A stretch of DNA of 64,000 bases from Escherichia phage Bf23, in the sequence record OR083247.1; one strand, 5' to 3'. Position numbers and translations under genes: made by a program. How positions within the stretch are numbered: the stretch's first letter is position 1; every line of letters begins with the position of its first letter. The notes below the pieces were generated by a model. The model searched no databases. It saw only the letters and a list, made by a program, of their open reading frames with translations, and was not told where the DNA came from. Below are positions 26,397 through 54,891 of this stretch, piece after piece.

Positions 26397-26477
26397 ATTA
26401 CCTCCATTAAGTCTTTTAAATTAACCTAATGTGGATGAATTTTATTATACATAAATTATTTACCTGTATGCAGAAAA

Positions 26478-26512
26478 ACCCCAGACTACTTATTCAATAG
26501 CTGGGGTTTGTT
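26478..26512 (-). terminator. rho-independent terminator
   Basis: hairpin CCCCAG...CTGGGG with U-run on the minus strand. Confidence 0.55.
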
Positions 26513-26517
26513 ATTAA

Positions 26518-26832
26518 TCACAGATCGGGGCGTTCATCTTCGAAACAGCCTGAGCTAATTCCTTCTCCGAATCCTACAAAGCCATCAAATTCATCATTTG
26601 AAATATCCGTAATCATTGCTTCCATTTTCCTAATTTCCGAGGTTTTCATACCTGCTTTACTATTCTTAAAGTGTTTGCGAGGGTTCCCACACATCCAACA
26701 AGAACAGATGCAAGGAGTAGTAGTGATAATACCTAACCGTTTAGGGCTTTCTTCATGTGGGAAGACTGTCCAATACTTCTTGCGGTTGTTCTTTACACGT
26801 TGCCGGTGATGACGTCTTAATGCTCGATCCAC
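26518..26832 (-). CDS. Cys-rich (zinc-finger-like) protein
   Basis: 104-aa ORF; 'CICSCWMCGNP'. Confidence 0.4.
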   Translation of the reverse strand: MDRALRRHHRQRVKNNRKKYWTVFPHEESPKRLGIITTTPCICSCWMCGNPRKHFKNSKAGMKTSEIRKMEAMITDISNDEFDGFVGFGEGISSGCFEDERPDL

Positions 26833-26913: not shown

Positions 26914-27282
26914 TTACATCGCCTGAGTAAATGTACGACTAATAACGTCGTTCTGCTGTTCACGTGTCAGTGCGTTAAAGCGCACAGCATAACCAGAAAC
27001 ACGAATGGTTAACTGAGGGTATTTTTCAGGATGTTTCTGGGCATCCAAAAGCTGATCACGACTTAACACATTGACATTTAGGTGTTGACCACCTTCAATT
27101 TGAGGGGCGACCTCCACCTTGACTTCACGAAAGGATTCAGAGTCAAAGTGAGGTGTGATACCTTCTAGATCTTCAACTAGAACTTTTTGTTTAAGTTCAC
27201 CATCTTTAGAGTACAGTTGAATAATCTGATTATCATGAACAAGATTAATTACGCCAGACTTAAGATTTTGATATGCTTTCAT
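26914..27282 (-). CDS. grcA: GrcA-like autonomous glycyl-radical cofactor protein
   Basis: start trimmed to Met at 27282 (RBS 'aggaga'); the ORF-track N-terminus runs into tRNA-Met. '[10 protein letters not shown]' and '[20 protein letters not shown]' match E. coli GrcA (YfiD) as I recall it. Confidence 0.65.
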
Positions 27283-27299
27283 TAGCTCTCCTGTTTGGT

Positions 27300-27372
27300 A
27301 GTTAGTAGTGGATTTGAACCACTGTAGTCGCTCCGTATGAAGGAGGTGCATAACCACTCTGCCAACTAACTA
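27300..27372 (-). tRNA. tRNA-Met (anticodon CAT)
   Basis: hand-folded: perfect 7-bp acceptor AGTTAGT/ACTAACT, T-arm AGTGG-TTCAAAT-CCACT, loop TTCATAC; CCA not encoded. Confidence 0.6.
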
Positions 27373-27467
27373 TTATGTTTTACTAGACTAAGTAAGTATT
27401 CTTTGTACTCTTTAGACCAATTAGCTTTTTTAAACTTTCCTGGACGCATAGTCTTAATTCCTAGATT

Positions 27468-27544
27468 TGGTACTCCGGGAGGGATTTAAACCCCCGATCT
27501 CTCGGTTATCAGCCGAGTGCTTTAGATCGCTAAGCTACCGAAGT
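27468..27544 (-). tRNA. tRNA-Ile (anticodon GAT)
   Basis: hand-folded: acceptor ACTTCGG/CCGGAGT, anticodon stem CTCGG/CCGAG, loop CTGATAA, CCA encoded. Confidence 0.6.
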
Positions 27545-27545
27545 A

Positions 27546-27773
27546 TTAACATTTAATTGCAGAACGTTTACCATTTCTAGGCGCACCTGGAAGTCGTGCA
27601 CGTTCTGCCATTCTTCGCTTAATCTTTGAGATATTTTCTAGTGTTTGTTCTTCAGGCTTAATACCTGAAACACTACACCACTGATTACCATCCCATGCGG
27701 TAATGATCATAACACCATTACTCATGATCTTTTCTGTAAAAGTAATCCTCATTATAGCAACTCGTCTAAGCAA
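27546..27773 (-). CDS. hypothetical protein
   Basis: 75-aa ORF; start uncertain. Confidence 0.3.
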   Translation of the reverse strand: MLRRVAIMRITFTEKIMSNGVMIITAWDGNQWCSVSGIKPEEQTLENISKIKRRMAERARLPGAPRNGKRSAIKC

Positions 27774-28045
27774 GAGGTATAATGGAATTTAGCTTCTCCA
27801 GTCTTATCTATTTCTACCTCAGTTCGTGGTACTTGACGAACTACACCATGAATCATCTTATAGCGAACGCCTTTAGCTGGTTCATGATCTTTTGGAAATA
27901 CTTGTTTGACCGTTACTACTTTATACTCTTCACGCGGTGTTAATACAACTACTTGATCACCCTCTTTGATTTTCCAGGAAGATGGAAATTCATAGGTATA
28001 CCTTTGGCCACCAGTTTGGAATACTACAGAAAGATAACGTTTCAT
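27752..28045 (-). CDS. hypothetical protein
   Basis: 97-aa ORF with early promoter upstream. Confidence 0.45.
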   Translation of the reverse strand: MKRYLSVVFQTGGQRYTYEFPSSWKIKEGDQVVVLTPREEYKVVTVKQVFPKDHEPAKGVRYKMIHGVVRQVPRTEVEIDKTGEAKFHYTSCLDELL

Positions 28046-28076
28046 TTGGTTTCCCTCTCATTAATTTATATAAATA

Positions 28077-28105
28077 TTATAACAAGAAATAAGAGAGAAT
28101 GCAAA
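28077..28105 (-). promoter_or_regulatory. T5-type early promoter (-35 TTGCAT, -10 TATAAT)
   Basis: conserved cassette. Confidence 0.55.
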
Positions 28106-28119
28106 TGAATTTTTAAGTT

Positions 28120-28194
28120 TGGTGCTCCCACTAGGAATCGAACCCAGCTCAGATGCTTACAAGGCAACTGCATCGCCAACAATGCTTTAGGAGC
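28120..28194 (-). tRNA. tRNA-Thr (anticodon TGT)
   Basis: hand-folded: acceptor GCTCCTA/TGGGAGC, T-loop TTCGATT, loop CTTGTAA, CCA encoded. Confidence 0.55.
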
Positions 28195-28206
28195 GATAAT
28201 CCCATT

Positions 28207-28374
28207 ATTTCAATGGGATTTCTTTTTCAAATACAGGGGATTTATCTGACATTACTGTCATTGCCAACTGCTGAAGAAACTCGAAAGTTAGCTTTAAACG
28301 TTCTTCGCCTAATTCAACCTCAACGTATTTCTTTTGTTTGTCAACCTTTAATTTTAGGTTATCAGCCATCTTCG
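28207..28374 (-). CDS. small hypothetical protein
   Basis: about 55 codons read by hand beginning MADNLKLKV; not in the ORF track. Confidence 0.3.
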
Positions 28375-28583
28375 GATTCTCGTTGCTCAGCTACTGCTAG
28401 CCAGTCTGGTAAAAGAAACTTAGTACGAAACTCTTCATAAGATTCTTCTGGATAAAAGCTAAAACCTCCTTTCTCATCATTCAAGATAACAGAGCCGTCA
28501 GTTTGTTCATATGCTCGATATGTTTCTCCAATAATGATAACTCGCTTATCAGTACTTTTATTACGAAACTCAAAAACGTGCAT
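28362..28583 (-). CDS. hypothetical protein
   Basis: 73-aa ORF. Confidence 0.4.
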   Translation of the reverse strand: MHVFEFRNKSTDKRVIIIGETYRAYEQTDGSVILNDEKGGFSFYPEESYEEFRTKFLLPDWLAVAEQRESEDG

Positions 28584-28599
28584 AACGTTTCCTTAAAGT

Positions 28600-28675
28600 T
28601 GGAGCGGCTAGAGGGAATCGAACCCTACTCAGCGAGGCTTGGAAGGCCTGCGACACAACCCGTGTGCTTAACCGC
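28600..28675 (-). tRNA. tRNA, probably Gly (anticodon TCC)
   Basis: good acceptor GCGGTTA/TAGCCGC and T-loop TTCGATT; loop CTTCCAA; irregular D-arm. Confidence 0.45.
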
Positions 28676-28683
28676 TTATTGTT

Positions 28684-28759
28684 TGGCTGGAGAAGGAGGA
28701 GTCGAACCTACCATTAACGGAGTCAAAGGCCATTGTGTTAACCGTTACACTACTCTCCA
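28684..28759 (-). tRNA. tRNA-Gln (anticodon TTG)
   Basis: acceptor TGGAGAG/TTCTCCA, D-stem GTGT/ACAC, loop CTTTGAC; position 31-39 mismatched. Confidence 0.55.
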
Positions 28760-28765
28760 ATTATT

Positions 28766-28841
28766 TGGCTGGAGTGCCTGGGATCGAACCAGGAACCTTC
28801 GGAGTCAGAGGCCGACGATCTGCCAATTGATCTACACTCCA
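28766..28841 (-). tRNA. tRNA-Gln (anticodon CTG)
   Basis: perfect acceptor TGGAGTG/CACTCCA, T-arm CCTGG-TTCGATC-CCAGG, loop CTCTGAC. Confidence 0.55.
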
Positions 28842-28850
28842 AGAATGCTA

Positions 28851-29087
28851 TTAACTAGACACTGGTTCTGCTGGCTGAGATACGGCAGGCTGTTCTAATG
28901 TATCTGGTGCTGATACAGAGAAAAGAGCTTGTAATGCTGCAATATCACGCTCGTAAGTTTCAATACGAGTAGTAAGAGTATCTACCATCTGTTTATGATA
29001 GGCTAAGTTATTCTGAGATTCATCTCGAAGAGTTTGCAGTTCTGCAAGACGTGTTAACATAATTTCACTAATTAAAGCATTACTCAT
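28851..29087 (-). CDS. hypothetical coiled-coil protein
   Basis: 78-aa ORF. Confidence 0.4.
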   Translation of the reverse strand: MSNALISEIMLTRLAELQTLRDESQNNLAYHKQMVDTLTTRIETYERDIAALQALFSVSAPDTLEQPAVSQPAEPVSS

Positions 29088-48803: not shown

Positions 48804-49565
48804 TTACACCTTCCCCATGTCTTTAAAAATATCATAGAATGCTTTAGACTCAACAGAACGAACGTTATCAATCAATTCGATCATTGAGAAGGGGGCATTT
48901 TCGTATTTCTCATAGACTTCCATAAGTAGTGCTAGACCTGAGTCACCTTTAATGTCTTTCTGAGCTATATCTCCGCAGATAATTAAACGGCAGTCTTGCC
49001 CTACACGAGTTAGGAGACAAATCATTGCCTCAACGGAAATATTCTGAGCTTCATCGACAATTACATAGGAGTTGTTGAAAGTTCTGCCACGAGCATGTTC
49101 GACAGCCAAAAATTTAATTTTCTGACGTTCGACATATCCTTTATATGCATGATCGCCGATGGCCCATTTCATACCATCAGCTATTGGCTCTAACCAAGGC
49201 TCTAGCTTTTCCGCTAGATCACCAGGAAGCATACCAAGAGACTTACCTAGAGGTTCATTAGGACGTACGAGGATCACTTGCTCAATATCTGAGTGAATGT
49301 CTACGAGTTCCTGAGCTGCAAGAACAGACGGGATAAAGGTTTTACCAGTACCTGGCTCACCAATACCCACAGTCACTGTGTTGTTCTTGATCATATTGAT
49401 ATATGATTTTTGCTCGCGGTTTTTACCTACTAGGGATTTAGCAACTGGGTTAGCGTAATCATTAGAAAAATCAGCCTGAATTACGTTATTCTCATATTTG
49501 TTGCCACGCTTTCTTGAACCATTGCGGTTCTCTCTTTTTTGACGTGCTTTTCCCATAAATAACAC
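48804..49565 (-). CDS. phoH: PhoH-like ATPase
   Basis: 253-aa ORF; Walker A 'GEPGTGKTF', Walker B 'VIVDEAQN'. Confidence 0.7.
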   Translation of the reverse strand: MLFMGKARQKRENRNGSRKRGNKYENNVIQADFSNDYANPVAKSLVGKNREQKSYINMIKNNTVTVGIGEPGTGKTFIPSVLAAQELVDIHSDIEQVILVRPNEPLGKSLGMLPGDLAEKLEPWLEPIADGMKWAIGDHAYKGYVERQKIKFLAVEHARGRTFNNSYVIVDEAQNISVEAMICLLTRVGQDCRLIICGDIAQKDIKGDSGLALLMEVYEKYENAPFSMIELIDNVRSVESKAFYDIFKDMGKV

Positions 49566-49908: not shown

Positions 49909-51783
49909 ATGAATCGTAATGAAGAACTAAAGTATAAAGAAATGCAGGCGTTAATTAGAAACTGCAAAGAGATTATCGAAGGATCAGCAGATGAAGAGCT
50001 GCTGTTTAATAATGCCAATAAACCCTCAGAACGTTTCCCTACACAAAGGGATATGCTTGCAGGGGAATTGAGTAAATATCTGATTCTAGAAGAAATGCCA
50101 ATTCAGATTCGAAATGCTCATATGATTGGAGATATTCATTTCCATGATGCTGATTACGCTGCTTTAGGTATGACTAACTGTTGTCTAGTAGCTCTGGAAG
50201 ATATGCTAAAAAATGGTATGAAAGTTGGTAATGCTGAAATTAGTACACCAAATTCTATTACTACTGCGGCTGCTATTACAGCTCAGATTATCACACAGGT
50301 TAGCTCCCATCAGTATGGCGGTACTTCTGTAGACCGATTAGATGAAGTATTGGCTCCTTATGTTCGTAAGTCTTATGATAAGAATCATGCGTTTGCAAAA
50401 CGTTGGACTAAGGATGAAGCCAAAGCATCAGTAATGGCTACTGAGATGACTGAAAAAGAAGTCTATGATGCTTGTCAGGGTCTAGAGTATGAAATCAATA
50501 CGATGTTCAATTCTAATGGTCAGAGTCCATTTATTACCTTTGGTTTTGGTCTAGGAACTTCTTGGGAAGCACGTCTAGTACAGAAAGCAATACTGAAAGT
50601 ACGTATGGATGGCCTAGGCATCAATAAACGTACAGCTATCTTTCCGAAACTGGTGTTTGTTCTGCGTGATGGCGTAAATATGAAGCCAGGAGATGTTAAT
50701 TATGACATCAAGAAGTTAGCTATGAAATGTACTGCTGAACGTATGTATCCCGACTATATCAGCTACGATAAGGTTGTGGAAGTTACTGGTGACTATAAAG
50801 TTTCTATGGGCTGCCGTTCATTCCTGGCTGCTACAGAGGATGGTGAAACTGCCGGTCGTAATAACTTAGGTGTTGTTTCTGTAAACTTGCCTAGAATTGC
50901 TATCGAAGCTGAAGGGAATATTGATCTATTCTTTGATTTGCTTGAGCTACGTGTGGATACAGCGTTAAAAGCATTGGAGTGGAGAGTTGATCGCTTAAAA
51001 TACATTCAAGCTAAAGCTGCGCCTATCCTCTATATGTCAGGAGCCTTTGGATTACGCTTAGGGCCTGATGAATATGTATTCGATCATTTCTATAACCGTG
51101 CTTCTGTATCTCTGGGGTATATTGGTTGCCATGAAATGCTACAGTTCATGTTTGGCAAAGATGTAGATACAATGTCTGAGACCTGCATCAAGTTTGTTCA
51201 GCGTGTGCTGCAGTACATGCGGGATAGGGTCGATCAGAAGAAGGAAGAGACTAAGTTAGGTTATAGCCTGTATGCTACACCATCAGAGTCCCTATGTGAT
51301 CGCTTTTGTCGTCTAGACCGTGAATATTTCCCGGAGCATGAAGATATTCTGTCCAAAGGATACTACACTAACTCTCACCACCTTGATGTGGAACGTAAAG
51401 TTGCTCCTAACGTGAAATTTGATTATGAATCTAACTTTACTCCGATTGCTTCTGGTGGATGTATCTCTTATGTAGAACTACCAGATATGAAACGATTCCC
51501 GGATGCACTGGAATGGGTTATTAATTATGCTGCTAGTAAGGTTCATTACTTCGGTATTAATACTCCAGTGGATTCCTGTGGTAAATGTGGATTCTTAGGT
51601 GAAACAGTAGCATCCGAAGATGGATTCAAGTGCCCTATCTGTGGTAATCATGACCCTGAAACTCTTGAAGTAACTCGTCGAGTTTGTGGGTATCTTGGAA
51701 ATCCAGGTGCTCGTCCGTTTAACCCAGGAAAACAACATGAGGTTATGGGCAGGGTGAAACATCAGGATATTCGAGCTAAATAA
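49909..51783 (+). CDS. nrdD: anaerobic ribonucleoside-triphosphate reductase
   Basis: 624-aa ORF; C-terminal zinc ribbon 'CGKCGF...CPICG' and glycyl-radical motif 'RVCGYLG'. Confidence 0.8.
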   Translation: MNRNEELKYKEMQALIRNCKEIIEGSADEELLFNNANKPSERFPTQRDMLAGELSKYLILEEMPIQIRNAHMIGDIHFHDADYAALGMTNCCLVALEDMLKNGMKVGNAEISTPNSITTAAAITAQIITQVSSHQYGGTSVDRLDEVLAPYVRKSYDKNHAFAKRWTKDEAKASVMATEMTEKEVYDACQGLEYEINTMFNSNGQSPFITFGFGLGTSWEARLVQKAILKVRMDGLGINKRTAIFPKLVFVLRDGVNMKPGDVNYDIKKLAMKCTAERMYPDYISYDKVVEVTGDYKVSMGCRSFLAATEDGETAGRNNLGVVSVNLPRIAIEAEGNIDLFFDLLELRVDTALKALEWRVDRLKYIQAKAAPILYMSGAFGLRLGPDEYVFDHFYNRASVSLGYIGCHEMLQFMFGKDVDTMSETCIKFVQRVLQYMRDRVDQKKEETKLGYSLYATPSESLCDRFCRLDREYFPEHEDILSKGYYTNSHHLDVERKVAPNVKFDYESNFTPIASGGCISYVELPDMKRFPDALEWVINYAASKVHYFGINTPVDSCGKCGFLGETVASEDGFKCPICGNHDPETLEVTRRVCGYLGNPGARPFNPGKQHEVMGRVKHQDIRAK

Positions 51784-52377: not shown

Positions 52378-52567
52378 TGGCTTAAATGCTGCGCTGGAAA
52401 ATGCATTGATGCAGCAGTGGGAGGCTGGATATAAGGATGGGGTTGAATCTTGTGCGAAAATAATGGATATAATGGCTAATTCTGTAGTTGGGAAAGCCCA
52501 TCCAGAAGTATCTGATATACTCCATAACCTTAGTAAAAACTTCAGAGAGCAGGTGAAAAATGCGTAG
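52346..52567 (+). CDS. hypothetical protein
   Basis: 73-aa ORF. Confidence 0.4.
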   Translation: MAFSKPMLPDNGLNAALENALMQQWEAGYKDGVESCAKIMDIMANSVVGKAHPEVSDILHNLSKNFREQVKNA

Positions 52568-53396
52568 ATTAATTATTATTAGTGGTGCAGGTTTGAGTGT
52601 TGAAAGTGGTGTACGAGCCTTCCGTACTGATACTGCTAGTGGTAAAGCATTGTGGGATGATTATGACTTAGAAGAGGTATGTAATATTCATGCCTTTCGT
52701 GGTAATTTTTATCATAAAACCCACACGTTTTACAACAAACGTCGTGAAGAGTTAGAAACTGTTGAACCCAATCTTGCACACCTGCGTATTGGTGAATGGT
52801 ATAAGAAATATCCGGGTCAAGTAGTAAACTTAACTACCAACGTTGATGACCTTATTGAGCGTGCTGGCGTTCCACATAGTGACATTCTGCACATTCATGG
52901 GTATTTAAAAGAGATTGTTGTAGCTGATAGCTACAATAGTAGCAATAAACGAGTTATTGATGTTGGGTATAACTCTATTGACCCAGATGATTATAAATGG
53001 GTTAAACCTAATGTAGTCTTCTTCGGAGAACATGCTCCAGCATATGCAGAAATGTACAATGTTTTTGATGGTATTACCAGTCAAGATATGATCATTGTGG
53101 TTGGTTGCTCTAACCAAGTAATTAACTTCTACTGGGAATTATTCCCTGTTCTTAATCTGACTGCTGCAAAACTTATGGTAGTTAACTACTACGATAGTGC
53201 CTTAGCGGCGGAACCAGGCTATCAAGGTATGACTCGTAGTGATATGTACCAACTGGAAGATCGTGGTATTCCTTACTGGAGTAAAGGTGCGGTAGATGCT
53301 TTCAGTGACCCTGGTTTTATTGCTCGTGTGGAAGCTCATCTAGAGGGTAGGCCTTATGTGCCGGAGAGAAGGGGAAACAGATATGTCCATAGTTAA
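52560..53396 (+). CDS. Sir2-like NAD-dependent deacetylase / NADase family protein
   Basis: 278-aa ORF; N-terminal 'IISGAGLSVESGVRAFRTD' matches the sirtuin NAD-binding motif GAGIS-ESG-IP-FR. Confidence 0.55.
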   Translation: MRRLIIISGAGLSVESGVRAFRTDTASGKALWDDYDLEEVCNIHAFRGNFYHKTHTFYNKRREELETVEPNLAHLRIGEWYKKYPGQVVNLTTNVDDLIERAGVPHSDILHIHGYLKEIVVADSYNSSNKRVIDVGYNSIDPDDYKWVKPNVVFFGEHAPAYAEMYNVFDGITSQDMIIVVGCSNQVINFYWELFPVLNLTAAKLMVVNYYDSALAAEPGYQGMTRSDMYQLEDRGIPYWSKGAVDAFSDPGFIARVEAHLEGRPYVPERRGNRYVHS

Positions 53397-53565
53397 ATCT
53401 GTATATACACATCCCGATGATATATTTGTATGGGCGGATGGTAGTTGGTGCTATCGATGTGAGCTATGGGAAATGGACTATAAATCCGATGACTATGGTG
53501 TCATATATGTTGATACAGTTGAGTATGATACGTTCTTAGAAAGGGACAAAAATGAAAATAAGTAA
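53383..53565 (+). CDS. hypothetical protein
   Basis: start trimmed to Met with RBS 'gagaagggga'. Confidence 0.35.
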   Translation: MSIVKSVYTHPDDIFVWADGSWCYRCELWEMDYKSDDYGVIYVDTVEYDTFLERDKNENK

Positions 53566-54058
53566 TACTCCAATTATTTTTCTAGATATTGATGGGGTGC
53601 TCAACTCGAGCATCTCCCATCACCATGCACCTGATGATGAAAAGATTTTCTTTGGAAGTGACTGGGTCTTTAAACCGCTTCTCAAGGCTTTTCAGGACTT
53701 TATTCGTCCTTCTCCAATAATGATTGTTGGGGTATCTTCATGGTTCTCTGTTAGGAATGAGGTGGAGAACGTTCAGATTATGACCGGATTAGATCTTATC
53801 GATCGTTTTCTTGGTACAACGGATTTTACTGGTGGTGGATTATCTAGAGGTAATTCTGTTCTTCGCTTCGTTGAAAAGCATAAGCTCAAACATTGGTGTG
53901 TGCTGGATGACGCTGGTGCTATGATGTACCAGTATCCAACGGTTATAGTCAACGGTAGAACTGGAATAAATCTTCAAGATTTAAGAGCTGTTAGCTATAT
54001 GCTAGAATTTAGCCCAGATCTTGAAATGTGTAAATCCTTACAACAATTTAAGGTGTAA
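53552..54058 (+). CDS. HAD-like phosphatase
   Basis: 168-aa ORF; N-terminal 'IIFLDIDGVLNS' HAD motif I, C-terminal 'VLDD'. Confidence 0.5.
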   Translation: MKISNTPIIFLDIDGVLNSSISHHHAPDDEKIFFGSDWVFKPLLKAFQDFIRPSPIMIVGVSSWFSVRNEVENVQIMTGLDLIDRFLGTTDFTGGGLSRGNSVLRFVEKHKLKHWCVLDDAGAMMYQYPTVIVNGRTGINLQDLRAVSYMLEFSPDLEMCKSLQQFKV

Positions 54059-54060
54059 AT

Positions 54061-54489
54061 ATGTTCAATAATGTATTCTCTAAAGAAGCTAACCCAATTT
54101 TGGTTAATTTTTGGCGTACTCTTCCAGCCAACCTGTACAATGAGGCTATTAATGCTCTGAAAATATGGTGTGAGAATAATGAAATCTCCTTTGCTTTTAA
54201 GGGTGAGATTGAAGAAGCTCCCTGTATTGGTTTAATTGTGCAGGTAGAGGATGGTTTGGAAGAGATTGTCGGCTGGAAAGAGTTGGATGAAATGGGGTTG
54301 GTTTTTGCATTAAACTATAAGCTATTTATGCCCAATAAACACCGTATTGTTGTTAACTATAAAACCAGTGAATCTCCGGGCTTTCAAGTTAATGAACATT
54401 ACGGTTGGTCTTACTCACCGGAAGAAGTAAATGATGGTATCCAAAAACTTCGTCGTTTTGGTTATCAAATTCCGGGTTTAACCGCCTAA
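54061..54489 (+). CDS. hypothetical protein, paralog A of a tandem pair
   Basis: 142-aa ORF; shares 'PCIG', 'E(L/M)xxMGL(V/I)xALN(Y/F)xLF' and C-terminal 'PGL' with 54499-54891. Confidence 0.5.
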   Translation: MFNNVFSKEANPILVNFWRTLPANLYNEAINALKIWCENNEISFAFKGEIEEAPCIGLIVQVEDGLEEIVGWKELDEMGLVFALNYKLFMPNKHRIVVNYKTSESPGFQVNEHYGWSYSPEEVNDGIQKLRRFGYQIPGLTA

Positions 54490-54498
54490 GGGGGCACA

Positions 54499-54891
54499 AT
54501 GGAACAAGTATATTGGCGTCAGATTGATCCTAGTTTGGTGAAGCGTGCGGAGAAGCTGCTACAACGTTGGTTGGGGGTAAGACAAGCCTCCTTCACTTTT
54601 CCGGAGCAGCAAATAGACGATCCCTGTATTGGTGTTTTCCTATCAGGCTACGCTAGGGAATGGGAATTGGATTGGAATGAGTTGTCTGCTATGGGTTTAA
54701 TTGTTGCACTAAATTTCTCTTTGTTCCATCCACGTGGTTTGGCCCTATGTCGTGTGCCTGATGACGGTTGTTCGCCCCATCTTTTACAGGTGGAAGATGA
54801 TATTTGGGAGTACACTCCAGATATTCTCAAAGAAGCTAAAGAACAGTTAAACCATGTTGGGATCTATGTTCCAGGCTTGAATGATGAATGA
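54499..54891 (+). CDS. hypothetical protein, paralog B of a tandem pair
   Basis: 130-aa ORF with RBS 'aaggggg'; paralogous to 54061-54489. Confidence 0.5.
   Translation: MEQVYWRQIDPSLVKRAEKLLQRWLGVRQASFTFPEQQIDDPCIGVFLSGYAREWELDWNELSAMGLIVALNFSLFHPRGLALCRVPDDGCSPHLLQVEDDIWEYTPDILKEAKEQLNHVGIYVPGLNDE

Follow-up and report, generated by a model that had tools for sequence, protein, structure and literature searches.

A GrcA-type glycyl-radical protein of phage BF23, encoded next to its tRNA genes and probably a spare part for host pyruvate formate-lyase

BF23 is a T5-like phage (Tequintavirus). We analysed a stretch of 64,000 nucleotides of its DNA (record OR083247.1), which is referred to here as the window. 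Within it, a small gene encoding a protein similar to GrcA, the glycyl-radical protein of Escherichia coli also called YfiD, lies at the edge of a cluster of 20 tRNA genes on the minus strand (27296-34574, ARAGORN). The gene and the signals that surround it are the following.

26914..27282, minus strand: coding sequence of the GrcA-like protein (BF23 ORF trn 2.21; ortholog of T5.056), 122 aa, with the ATG at 27282 and the stop codon included
26992..26994, minus strand: codon GGT of Gly97, the predicted radical-bearing glycine in IRVSGYAV, aligned with PflB Gly734 and GrcA Gly102
27288..27292, minus strand: Shine-Dalgarno sequence AGGAG, 5 nt upstream of the ATG, read from the sequence; the RBS is annotated in AJ604530
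27296..27371, minus strand: tRNA-Met(CAU), directly upstream of the GrcA-like gene (ARAGORN; Rfam tRNA, 51.5 bits; AJ604530)
28076..28105, minus strand: sigma-70 promoter-like site TTTGCA-18-TGnTATAAT, 10/12, coinciding with the annotated promoter P11 (AJ604530; T5 NC_005859)
26518..26832, minus strand: trn 2.22, downstream co-oriented ORF of 104 aa with the Cys cluster CICSCWMCGNPRK, the last gene before the terminator (AJ604530)
26471..26509, minus strand: intrinsic terminator, a 14-bp hairpin followed by UUUUU ("ter2" in AJ604530), RNA fold -19 kcal/mol, z = -4.3

The mechanically called open reading frame is longer than the gene. It spans 26914-27357 on the minus strand and would yield 147 aa from a GTG at 27357. 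We rejected this start and take the ATG at 27282 as the right one because the upstream extension lies inside tRNA-Met. The ATG is preceded by the RBS and opens a conserved N-terminus, of which the first residues, MKAYQ, are common to the BF23 protein and to Vs.6 of phage T4. Moreover, AJ604530, a record of the BF23 tRNA gene region that is 100% identical to the window over the 1301 bases tested, carries exactly the same CDS and RBS under the label "ORF trn 2.21; putative formate acetyltransferase". The preliminary description, drawn up from the letters of the window, had already trimmed the frame to about 122 aa, in agreement with all these data.

The CCA end of tRNA-Met is separated from the ATG of the GrcA-like gene by 13 nt. 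This tight junction of tRNA and gene is not conserved, since in the T5-like phage VSe12, as in many further phages of this type, an additional small ORF lies between the two. P11 is the likely start of a transcript that would comprise trn2.19, trn2.19.1, tRNA-Ile, trn2.20, tRNA-Met, the GrcA-like gene and trn2.22. The product of trn 2.22 matches PHROG families of unknown function, phrog_4499 among them, and has no Pfam match. Its string CICSCWMC recalls the C-x3-C-x2-C pattern, and we considered whether the protein might be a miniature radical-SAM protein. This idea is unsupported, given that 104 aa are too few for the fold and that Pfam finds nothing. The region around the GrcA-like gene is a mosaic of small ORFs, tRNAs and homing endonucleases.

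We compared the BF23 protein with the E. coli K-12 proteins encoded by grcA, pflB, pflA, nrdD and nrdG (sequences from NC_000913.3). With GrcA, BLASTP aligned no more than residues 51-122, which are 74% identical over an alignment of 74 aa (E 2e-39); with PflB it aligned the C-terminus to residues 700-760, at 80% over 61 aa and ungapped (E 7e-33). These are the two alignments that the preliminary description had proposed as a check of the likeness to GrcA, along with the warning that similarity confined to low-complexity segments would speak against it. The matching sequence is not low-complexity and the match is far beyond chance; likewise, both motif strings that had been quoted as common to the two proteins are exact in GrcA. 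Over the last 61 residues the three proteins are about equally distant from one another, with identities of 49/61 for BF23 and PflB, 48/61 for BF23 and GrcA, and 48/61 for GrcA and PflB, a degree of identity at which GrcA does rescue PflB. The BF23 domain thus differs from PflB at 12 of 61 residues and, at the 13 positions where PflB and GrcA disagree, it sides with PflB at four, with GrcA at three and with neither at six, a count that favours neither of the two as the source of the phage gene.

Profile and structure searches point in the same direction. Pfam Gly_radical (E 3.9e-18) places residues 62-103 on profile positions 65-106 of 106, and Pfam finds no second domain in the protein; the glycyl-radical domain occupies approximately residues 62-122, that is, the C-terminal half. 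The best NCBIfam match is TIGR04365, GrcA (E 1.9e-35), and a phmmer search of PDB sequences returned YfiD (6OWR, 1.5e-30) and PFL (4e-27). Foldseek with an AF2 model gave the YfiD NMR structure and PFL as top matches, and the model superimposes on PFL with an rmsd of 2.9 A over 52 columns. The loop RVSGYAV is identical in the BF23 protein, GrcA, PflB and T4 Vs.6. It forms part of IRVSGYAV (residues 93-100), and the glycine previously singled out as the radical site in RVSGY is Gly97, which aligns with the radical glycines of both E. coli proteins. The BF23 protein contains no cysteine. Altogether, these sequence data support its assignment as a stand-alone glycyl-radical module of the GrcA/YfiD type.

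The general plan of the protein agrees with this assignment. GrcA-type proteins have about 120-130 aa, a glycyl-radical domain and no catalytic barrel, and the BF23 protein (122 aa, compared with 127 aa for GrcA) shares this size and layout, the PFL-type loop with its radical glycine, a C-terminal domain that is nearly the same as the end of PFL, a 20-residue block identical to that of GrcA, and the architecture predicted by AF2. The N-terminal homology to GrcA is weak and recognisable (an M-x-x-x-Q start and a K/E-D/G turn), although the first 50 residues are too diverged for a BLASTP alignment. AF2 models residues 1-36 as an ordered beta-sheet (pLDDT ~90), whereas the N-terminal region of YfiD is disordered by NMR. 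We rejected a structural difference on this ground, since AF2 gives a likewise confident beta N-terminus for an enterobacterial GrcA used as control. The two genes also differ in their setting: grcA is expressed from an FNR/ArcA-regulated host promoter, whereas the BF23 gene is phage-encoded and would be read from the tRNA-cluster transcript.

On the other hand, the protein is clearly not a complete formate lyase. PFL is a ~760-aa enzyme with a ten-stranded barrel and the catalytic pair Cys418-Cys419, and the BF23 protein, free of cysteines, matches TIGR01255 over its last 62 positions only (86 bits against a cut-off of 994). It does share with the PflB C-terminal domain (~700-760; PDB 2PFL/1H16) the position of Gly734 and the C-terminal TQxM, but the catalytic barrel of 700 aa that contains Cys418/Cys419 is missing, and the protein can therefore be no formate acetyltransferase by itself. 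The scores against the GrcA families of NCBIfam are likewise below the equivalog cut-offs, with 121.9 bits for TIGR04365 (cut-off 170), 90.8 for GrcA2 (145) and 116.1 for GrcA3 (158), because the N-terminal half has diverged. The phage family phrog_1209 is, by comparison, matched over the full length (E 4.6e-48; residues 1-122 on profile positions 1-121 of 121). These profiles place the BF23 protein among the GrcA homologs of a separate phage subfamily, phrog_1209, and not among the NCBI "equivalogs".

A characterised member of this subfamily is Y06I of T4, also called Vs.6 (120 aa), which is 52% identical over its full length and has the same MKAYQ start and the same loop. Both genomes carry nrdD. 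The two loci have no neighbouring genes in common, and the two domains stand at different distances from the host proteins: that of T4 matches GrcA at 59 of 61 residues, unlike the BF23/T5 domain. The T5-type protein would thus be a separate, older lineage of GrcA-type proteins, as its domain is equidistant from GrcA and PflB and that of T4 is nearly a copy of GrcA. In a rough neighbour-joining tree, too weak to tell a single capture from several, the T5-type proteins grouped with jumbo-phage proteins and not with T4.

Searching 50,697 phage records by tblastn, we found the GrcA-like protein in 1582 of them. At least 90% identity was seen in 426 records, T5-likes of Escherichia, Salmonella, Shigella and other hosts; about 1000 T4-like records, T4 vs.6 (Y06I) included, match at ~52% identity, and phages of Vibrio and Aeromonas are also among the matches. 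The best 120 homologs in a collection of 5.8 billion proteins include proteins from ~350-kb jumbo-phage contigs and bacterial GrcA. All 120 keep RVSGY, Gly97 is invariant in a diverse alignment of 46 sequences, and the C-terminal 60 residues are almost invariant in homologs. The loss of the motif glycine in related phages, which the preliminary description had named as a possible refutation, is therefore not observed. Comparison of BF23, T5 and VSe12 gave a dN/dS of 0.02-0.04. In the C-terminal half dN is 0 at a dS of 0.26-0.51, and in the N-terminal half omega is ~0.05-0.07. The GrcA-like gene is a real and functional gene under strong purifying selection.

A second glycyl-radical protein is encoded in the window, in the position and with the RVCGYLG motif that had been described before:

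49909..51783, plus strand: NrdD, class III (anaerobic) ribonucleotide reductase, a glycyl-radical enzyme (Pfam NRDD, 5.5e-172; motif RRVCGYLG)

This NrdD shares 54% identity with the E. coli enzyme, whose active-site motifs NC and MGC are matched by the same residues in the aligned positions of the phage protein. Its C-terminal region has a Cys4 cluster, CxxC...CxxC, just before the glycine loop. T5-type NrdD was found at 90% identity or more in 389 phage records, a number comparable to the 426 of the GrcA-like gene. Glycyl-radical proteins depend on activases, and in T4-likes nrdG adjoins nrdD. In T5-likes we found no such gene: tblastn with E. coli PflA and NrdG gave no homolog in the 64-kb window (best E 0.18) or in the complete genome of VSe12 (best E 1.8), and the VSe12 annotation names no activase. 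In T5-likes it would thus fall to the host to activate the two glycyl-radical proteins, and the GrcA-like protein, with its exact RVSGYAV peptide, would be a substrate of host PflA.

Phage proteins of this kind are already known, and the novelty implied by the preliminary description does not hold. T4 Y06I was characterised in 2001 as a GrcA-type spare part (Wagner et al., BBRC 285:456, pmid 11444864, as cited in PMC8683613), and the Gly_radical match of vs.6 was published in 2006 along with a speculation on nucleotide metabolism, based on the Gly_radical domain of NrdD (PMC1524935). Moreover, many T5-like records annotate the gene as GrcA or as a PFL fragment. The VSe12 ortholog bears the RefSeq name "autonomous glycyl radical cofactor GrcA", as do several GenBank/RefSeq records, and the T5 and BF23 records already flag the glycyl-radical domain, T5.056 being annotated as "putative acetyltransferase-related protein, IPR001150". 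Other orthologs are labelled "pyruvate formate-lyase", "acetyltransferase", "2-ketobutyrate formate-lyase", "ribonucleotide reductase subunit" or "hypothetical", and PHROGs lists phrog_1209 as of unknown function. The first, second and fourth of these ortholog labels are misnomers. The main text of the BF23 genome paper makes no mention of the gene, and in the literature searched we found no experiment on the T5/BF23 protein and no in vivo phage phenotype.

As to function, we consider it very likely that the BF23 protein is a spare part that repairs the oxygen-damaged pyruvate formate-lyase of the host, in the manner of YfiD and T4 Y06I. These two are the biochemically validated spare parts, and both restore oxygen-cleaved PFL (Wagner et al. 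2001, in the account given in PMC8683613). YfiD binds oxygen-cleaved PFL with a KD of ~14 uM. Its N-terminal half helps in this binding and is needed for efficient activation; the new glycyl radical comes from the C-terminal domain. Activation by the PFL-activating enzyme (PFL-AE, or PflA) is efficient only when cleaved PFL is present; free YfiD is a poor substrate, with a KM of ~100 uM compared with 1.4 uM for PFL.

By analogy, once oxygen has cleaved activated PFL at Gly734, the phage protein would bind the cleaved enzyme and its C-terminal ~60 residues would replace the lost or displaced C-terminal glycyl-radical domain. Host PflA would then install a new radical on Gly97 of RVSGYAV, and PFL activity would return. 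As far as sequence can tell, the BF23 protein has every feature needed for a YfiD-type cycle, with the caveat that its N-terminal half bears only a weak resemblance to the corresponding part of E. coli GrcA. Soon after infection, T5-type phages shut off the host and break down its DNA, so that an infected cell cannot resynthesise PflB or GrcA. A phage copy, expressed from an early transcript of the tRNA region, might sustain the fermentative supply of acetyl-CoA and ATP, and of formate, during microaerobic infection. What we infer here is the role of host PflA, the docking on cleaved PflB and the gain for the phage.

The benefit for which such repair is selected could be more specific. The spare part would still act on host PFL, keeping it active through pulses of oxygen, and the advantage would lie in formate for the class III ribonucleotide reductase, so that the GrcA-like gene would work together with nrdD in the making of dNTPs at low oxygen. 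PFL is the formate source of the cell, and the NrdDs of E. coli, T4 and Lactococcus lactis use formate as electron donor (PMC4390871; for formate as the NrdD reductant also Mulliez 1995, as cited in PMC13450708). The identity of BF23 NrdD to the E. coli enzyme and its conserved NC and MGC residues suit such a chemistry, and a 2026 review notes that a formate-dependent class III enzyme may consume the formate made by PFL (PMC13450708). In addition, the lineages with a GrcA-like protein (T5-like, T4-like and ~350-kb jumbo phages) are also among the NrdD carriers, an overlap seen at the level of lineages among the matches listed. However, NrdD occurs in 2908 phage records and the GrcA-like protein in 1582, so that many phages have the reductase without the spare part. 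The two BF23 genes lie 23 kb apart on opposite strands and form no operon. Furthermore, formate is abundant in fermenting cells, and the acetyl-CoA and ATP gained through PFL could be the selected benefit instead. We therefore regard the coupling to formate as a tentative possibility, one that is rather doubtful on present evidence.

A mimic of the PFL domain could also act as a decoy or inhibitor that sequesters host PFL-AE or blocks PFL and so redirects the carbon flux of the host. The exact recognition loop of PFL-AE is present in the BF23 protein, and phages often encode mimics of host proteins. Nevertheless, conservation extends beyond the activase-binding loop to the whole 61-aa domain, which must fit the active site of PFL, and the T4 protein brings PFL activity back in vitro and does not inhibit it, according to PMC8683613. 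A decoy of the YfiD type would moreover be inefficient, because free YfiD is such a poor substrate of PFL-AE. A decoy role is thus quite improbable.

The preliminary description suggested that the protein may serve host PFL or the phage NrdD. The first part of this suggestion has the most support, through homology to T4 Y06I, a protein that has been tested biochemically; the second is not supported. As a spare part for the phage's own NrdD, the protein would stand in for the C-terminal glycyl-radical segment of that enzyme after cleavage by oxygen. In favour of it, the two genes share one genome, both proteins match Pfam Gly_radical and have G-Y after the radical glycine, and something of the kind was proposed for T4 vs.6 in 2006 (PMC1524935). 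Spare parts are known for formate lyases only (2026 review, PMC13450708), and the question of spare parts for other glycyl-radical enzymes is left open in reviews (PMC13450708 and PMC8683613). Nonetheless, BLASTP detects no similarity between the GrcA-like protein and BF23 NrdD (E 5.6). A C-terminal module of a class III reductase should resemble NrdD and have RVCGYLG and the Cys4 site, whereas the BF23 protein has the PFL-type loop RVSGYAV, no cysteine and a C-terminal domain 80% identical to PflB. Moreover, NrdD has an activase of its own, NrdG, and PFL-AE puts the radical on the peptide RVSGYAV and not on RVCGYLG (PMC13450708), a discrimination which suggests that each activase reads its own loop. 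Repair of the phage NrdD is, in our judgement, extremely improbable.

Finally, a non-functional fragment of host pflB or grcA, captured by the phage and carried passively in the tRNA region, would suit the mosaic character of this region and the 73.7% nucleotide similarity to E. coli pflB over the 3' half of the gene, but it has next to no probability left: the low dN/dS and a C-terminal half unchanged at a dS of up to 0.5 effectively refute it and mark the gene as functional, the frame is intact and has its RBS in hundreds of genomes, and the family is common to T4-like and jumbo phages (phrog_1209).

The value of these results lies in the correction of an inconsistent annotation and in the question of why virulent enterobacterial phages carry a part for the repair of PFL. 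The possible link through formate to the phage NrdD, and the dependence on host activases, add to this value. If the coupling to formate were true, host activases would have to install both radicals, since neither NrdG nor PflA was found in the T5-likes searched, and in the gut the phage would need the PFL / PflA / NrdG axis of its host to make DNA.

The catalytic subunit of class III ribonucleotide reductase, NrdD, is encoded by T5-like phages. In the BF23 window, the gene lies among the following features:

48804-49565, minus strand: PhoH-like ATPase, upstream of NrdD
49909-51783, plus strand: NrdD
52560-53396, plus strand: Sir2-family protein, downstream of NrdD
53552-54058, plus strand: HAD_SAK_2 domain protein, downstream of NrdD
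54061-54489 and 54499-54891, plus strand: two DUF7415 paralogs, downstream of NrdD

Unlike T4-like phages, in which nrdG adjoins nrdD, T5-like phages carry nrdD without nrdG. We found no NrdG activase in the window or in the complete T5-like genome of Salmonella phage VSe12, and likewise no PflA homolog in either. The only noteworthy radical-SAM-like C-x3-C-x2-C string in the window occurs in ORF trn2.22, which forms one transcription unit with the GrcA-like gene:

26518-26832, minus strand: ORF trn2.22 (104 aa), directly 3' of the GrcA-like gene

The N-terminus of its product is basic, and the protein also contains a Cys cluster (TPCICSCWMCGNPRKHF). It gave no match in a Pfam search and matches phrog_4499 and phrog_6828, both listed with unknown function. 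At 104 aa, this ORF is too short for an activase, and we rejected it as a candidate.

At its 5' side, the GrcA-like gene is closely linked to a tRNA gene. In both BF23 and T5, the GrcA-like ATG follows the encoded CCA end of tRNA-Met after a spacer of only 13 nt that contains a Shine-Dalgarno sequence (window 27283-27371, minus strand). Processing of the tRNA-Met 3' end would leave a GrcA-like mRNA with a very short leader. In contrast, VSe12 and many other T5-like phages carry about 260 bp of inserted DNA here, including an additional ORF. Further RNAs of the tRNA region are annotated in GenBank AJ604530:

about 28600-28675, 30039-30129, 29381-29741 and 30417-30588, minus strand: tRNA-Gly(UCC) and a second tRNA-Ser(GGA), together with several "stable RNAs of unknown function" (RNAIII, RNAI, tRNA-like RNA1, RNA 2H)

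Neither ARAGORN nor Rfam, at its gathering threshold, made a call at these positions.

Database records label orthologs of the 122-aa GrcA-like protein inconsistently, as pyruvate formate-lyase, 2-ketobutyrate formate-lyase, acetyltransferase, "ribonucleotide reductase subunit", glycine radical protein, GrcA or hypothetical. PHROGs lists its family, phrog_1209, as unknown function, even though the biochemistry of the T4 spare part Y06I was published in 2001 (Wagner et al., cited in PMC8683613). On the bacterial side, an enterobacterial GrcA variant (127-aa cluster P0113, 900 members) combines a GrcA-type N-terminus with 17 final residues (TKEQQQDVITRTFTQSM) that match PflB exactly and not K-12 GrcA, which suggests grcA-pflB recombination or gene conversion in some enterobacteria.

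In its C-terminal loop region (VTRRVCGYLG.P.ARPFN.GKQ), BF23 NrdD is almost the same as E. coli NrdD. The alignment of the 624-aa phage protein begins only at E. coli residue 113, and BF23 NrdD therefore lacks the N-terminal ATP-cone region present in the E. coli enzyme. This absence suggests that BF23 NrdD is not subject to dATP/ATP overall-activity regulation. Judging from gene content, with NrdD encoded and NrdG missing, the phage enzyme must presumably depend on host NrdG.
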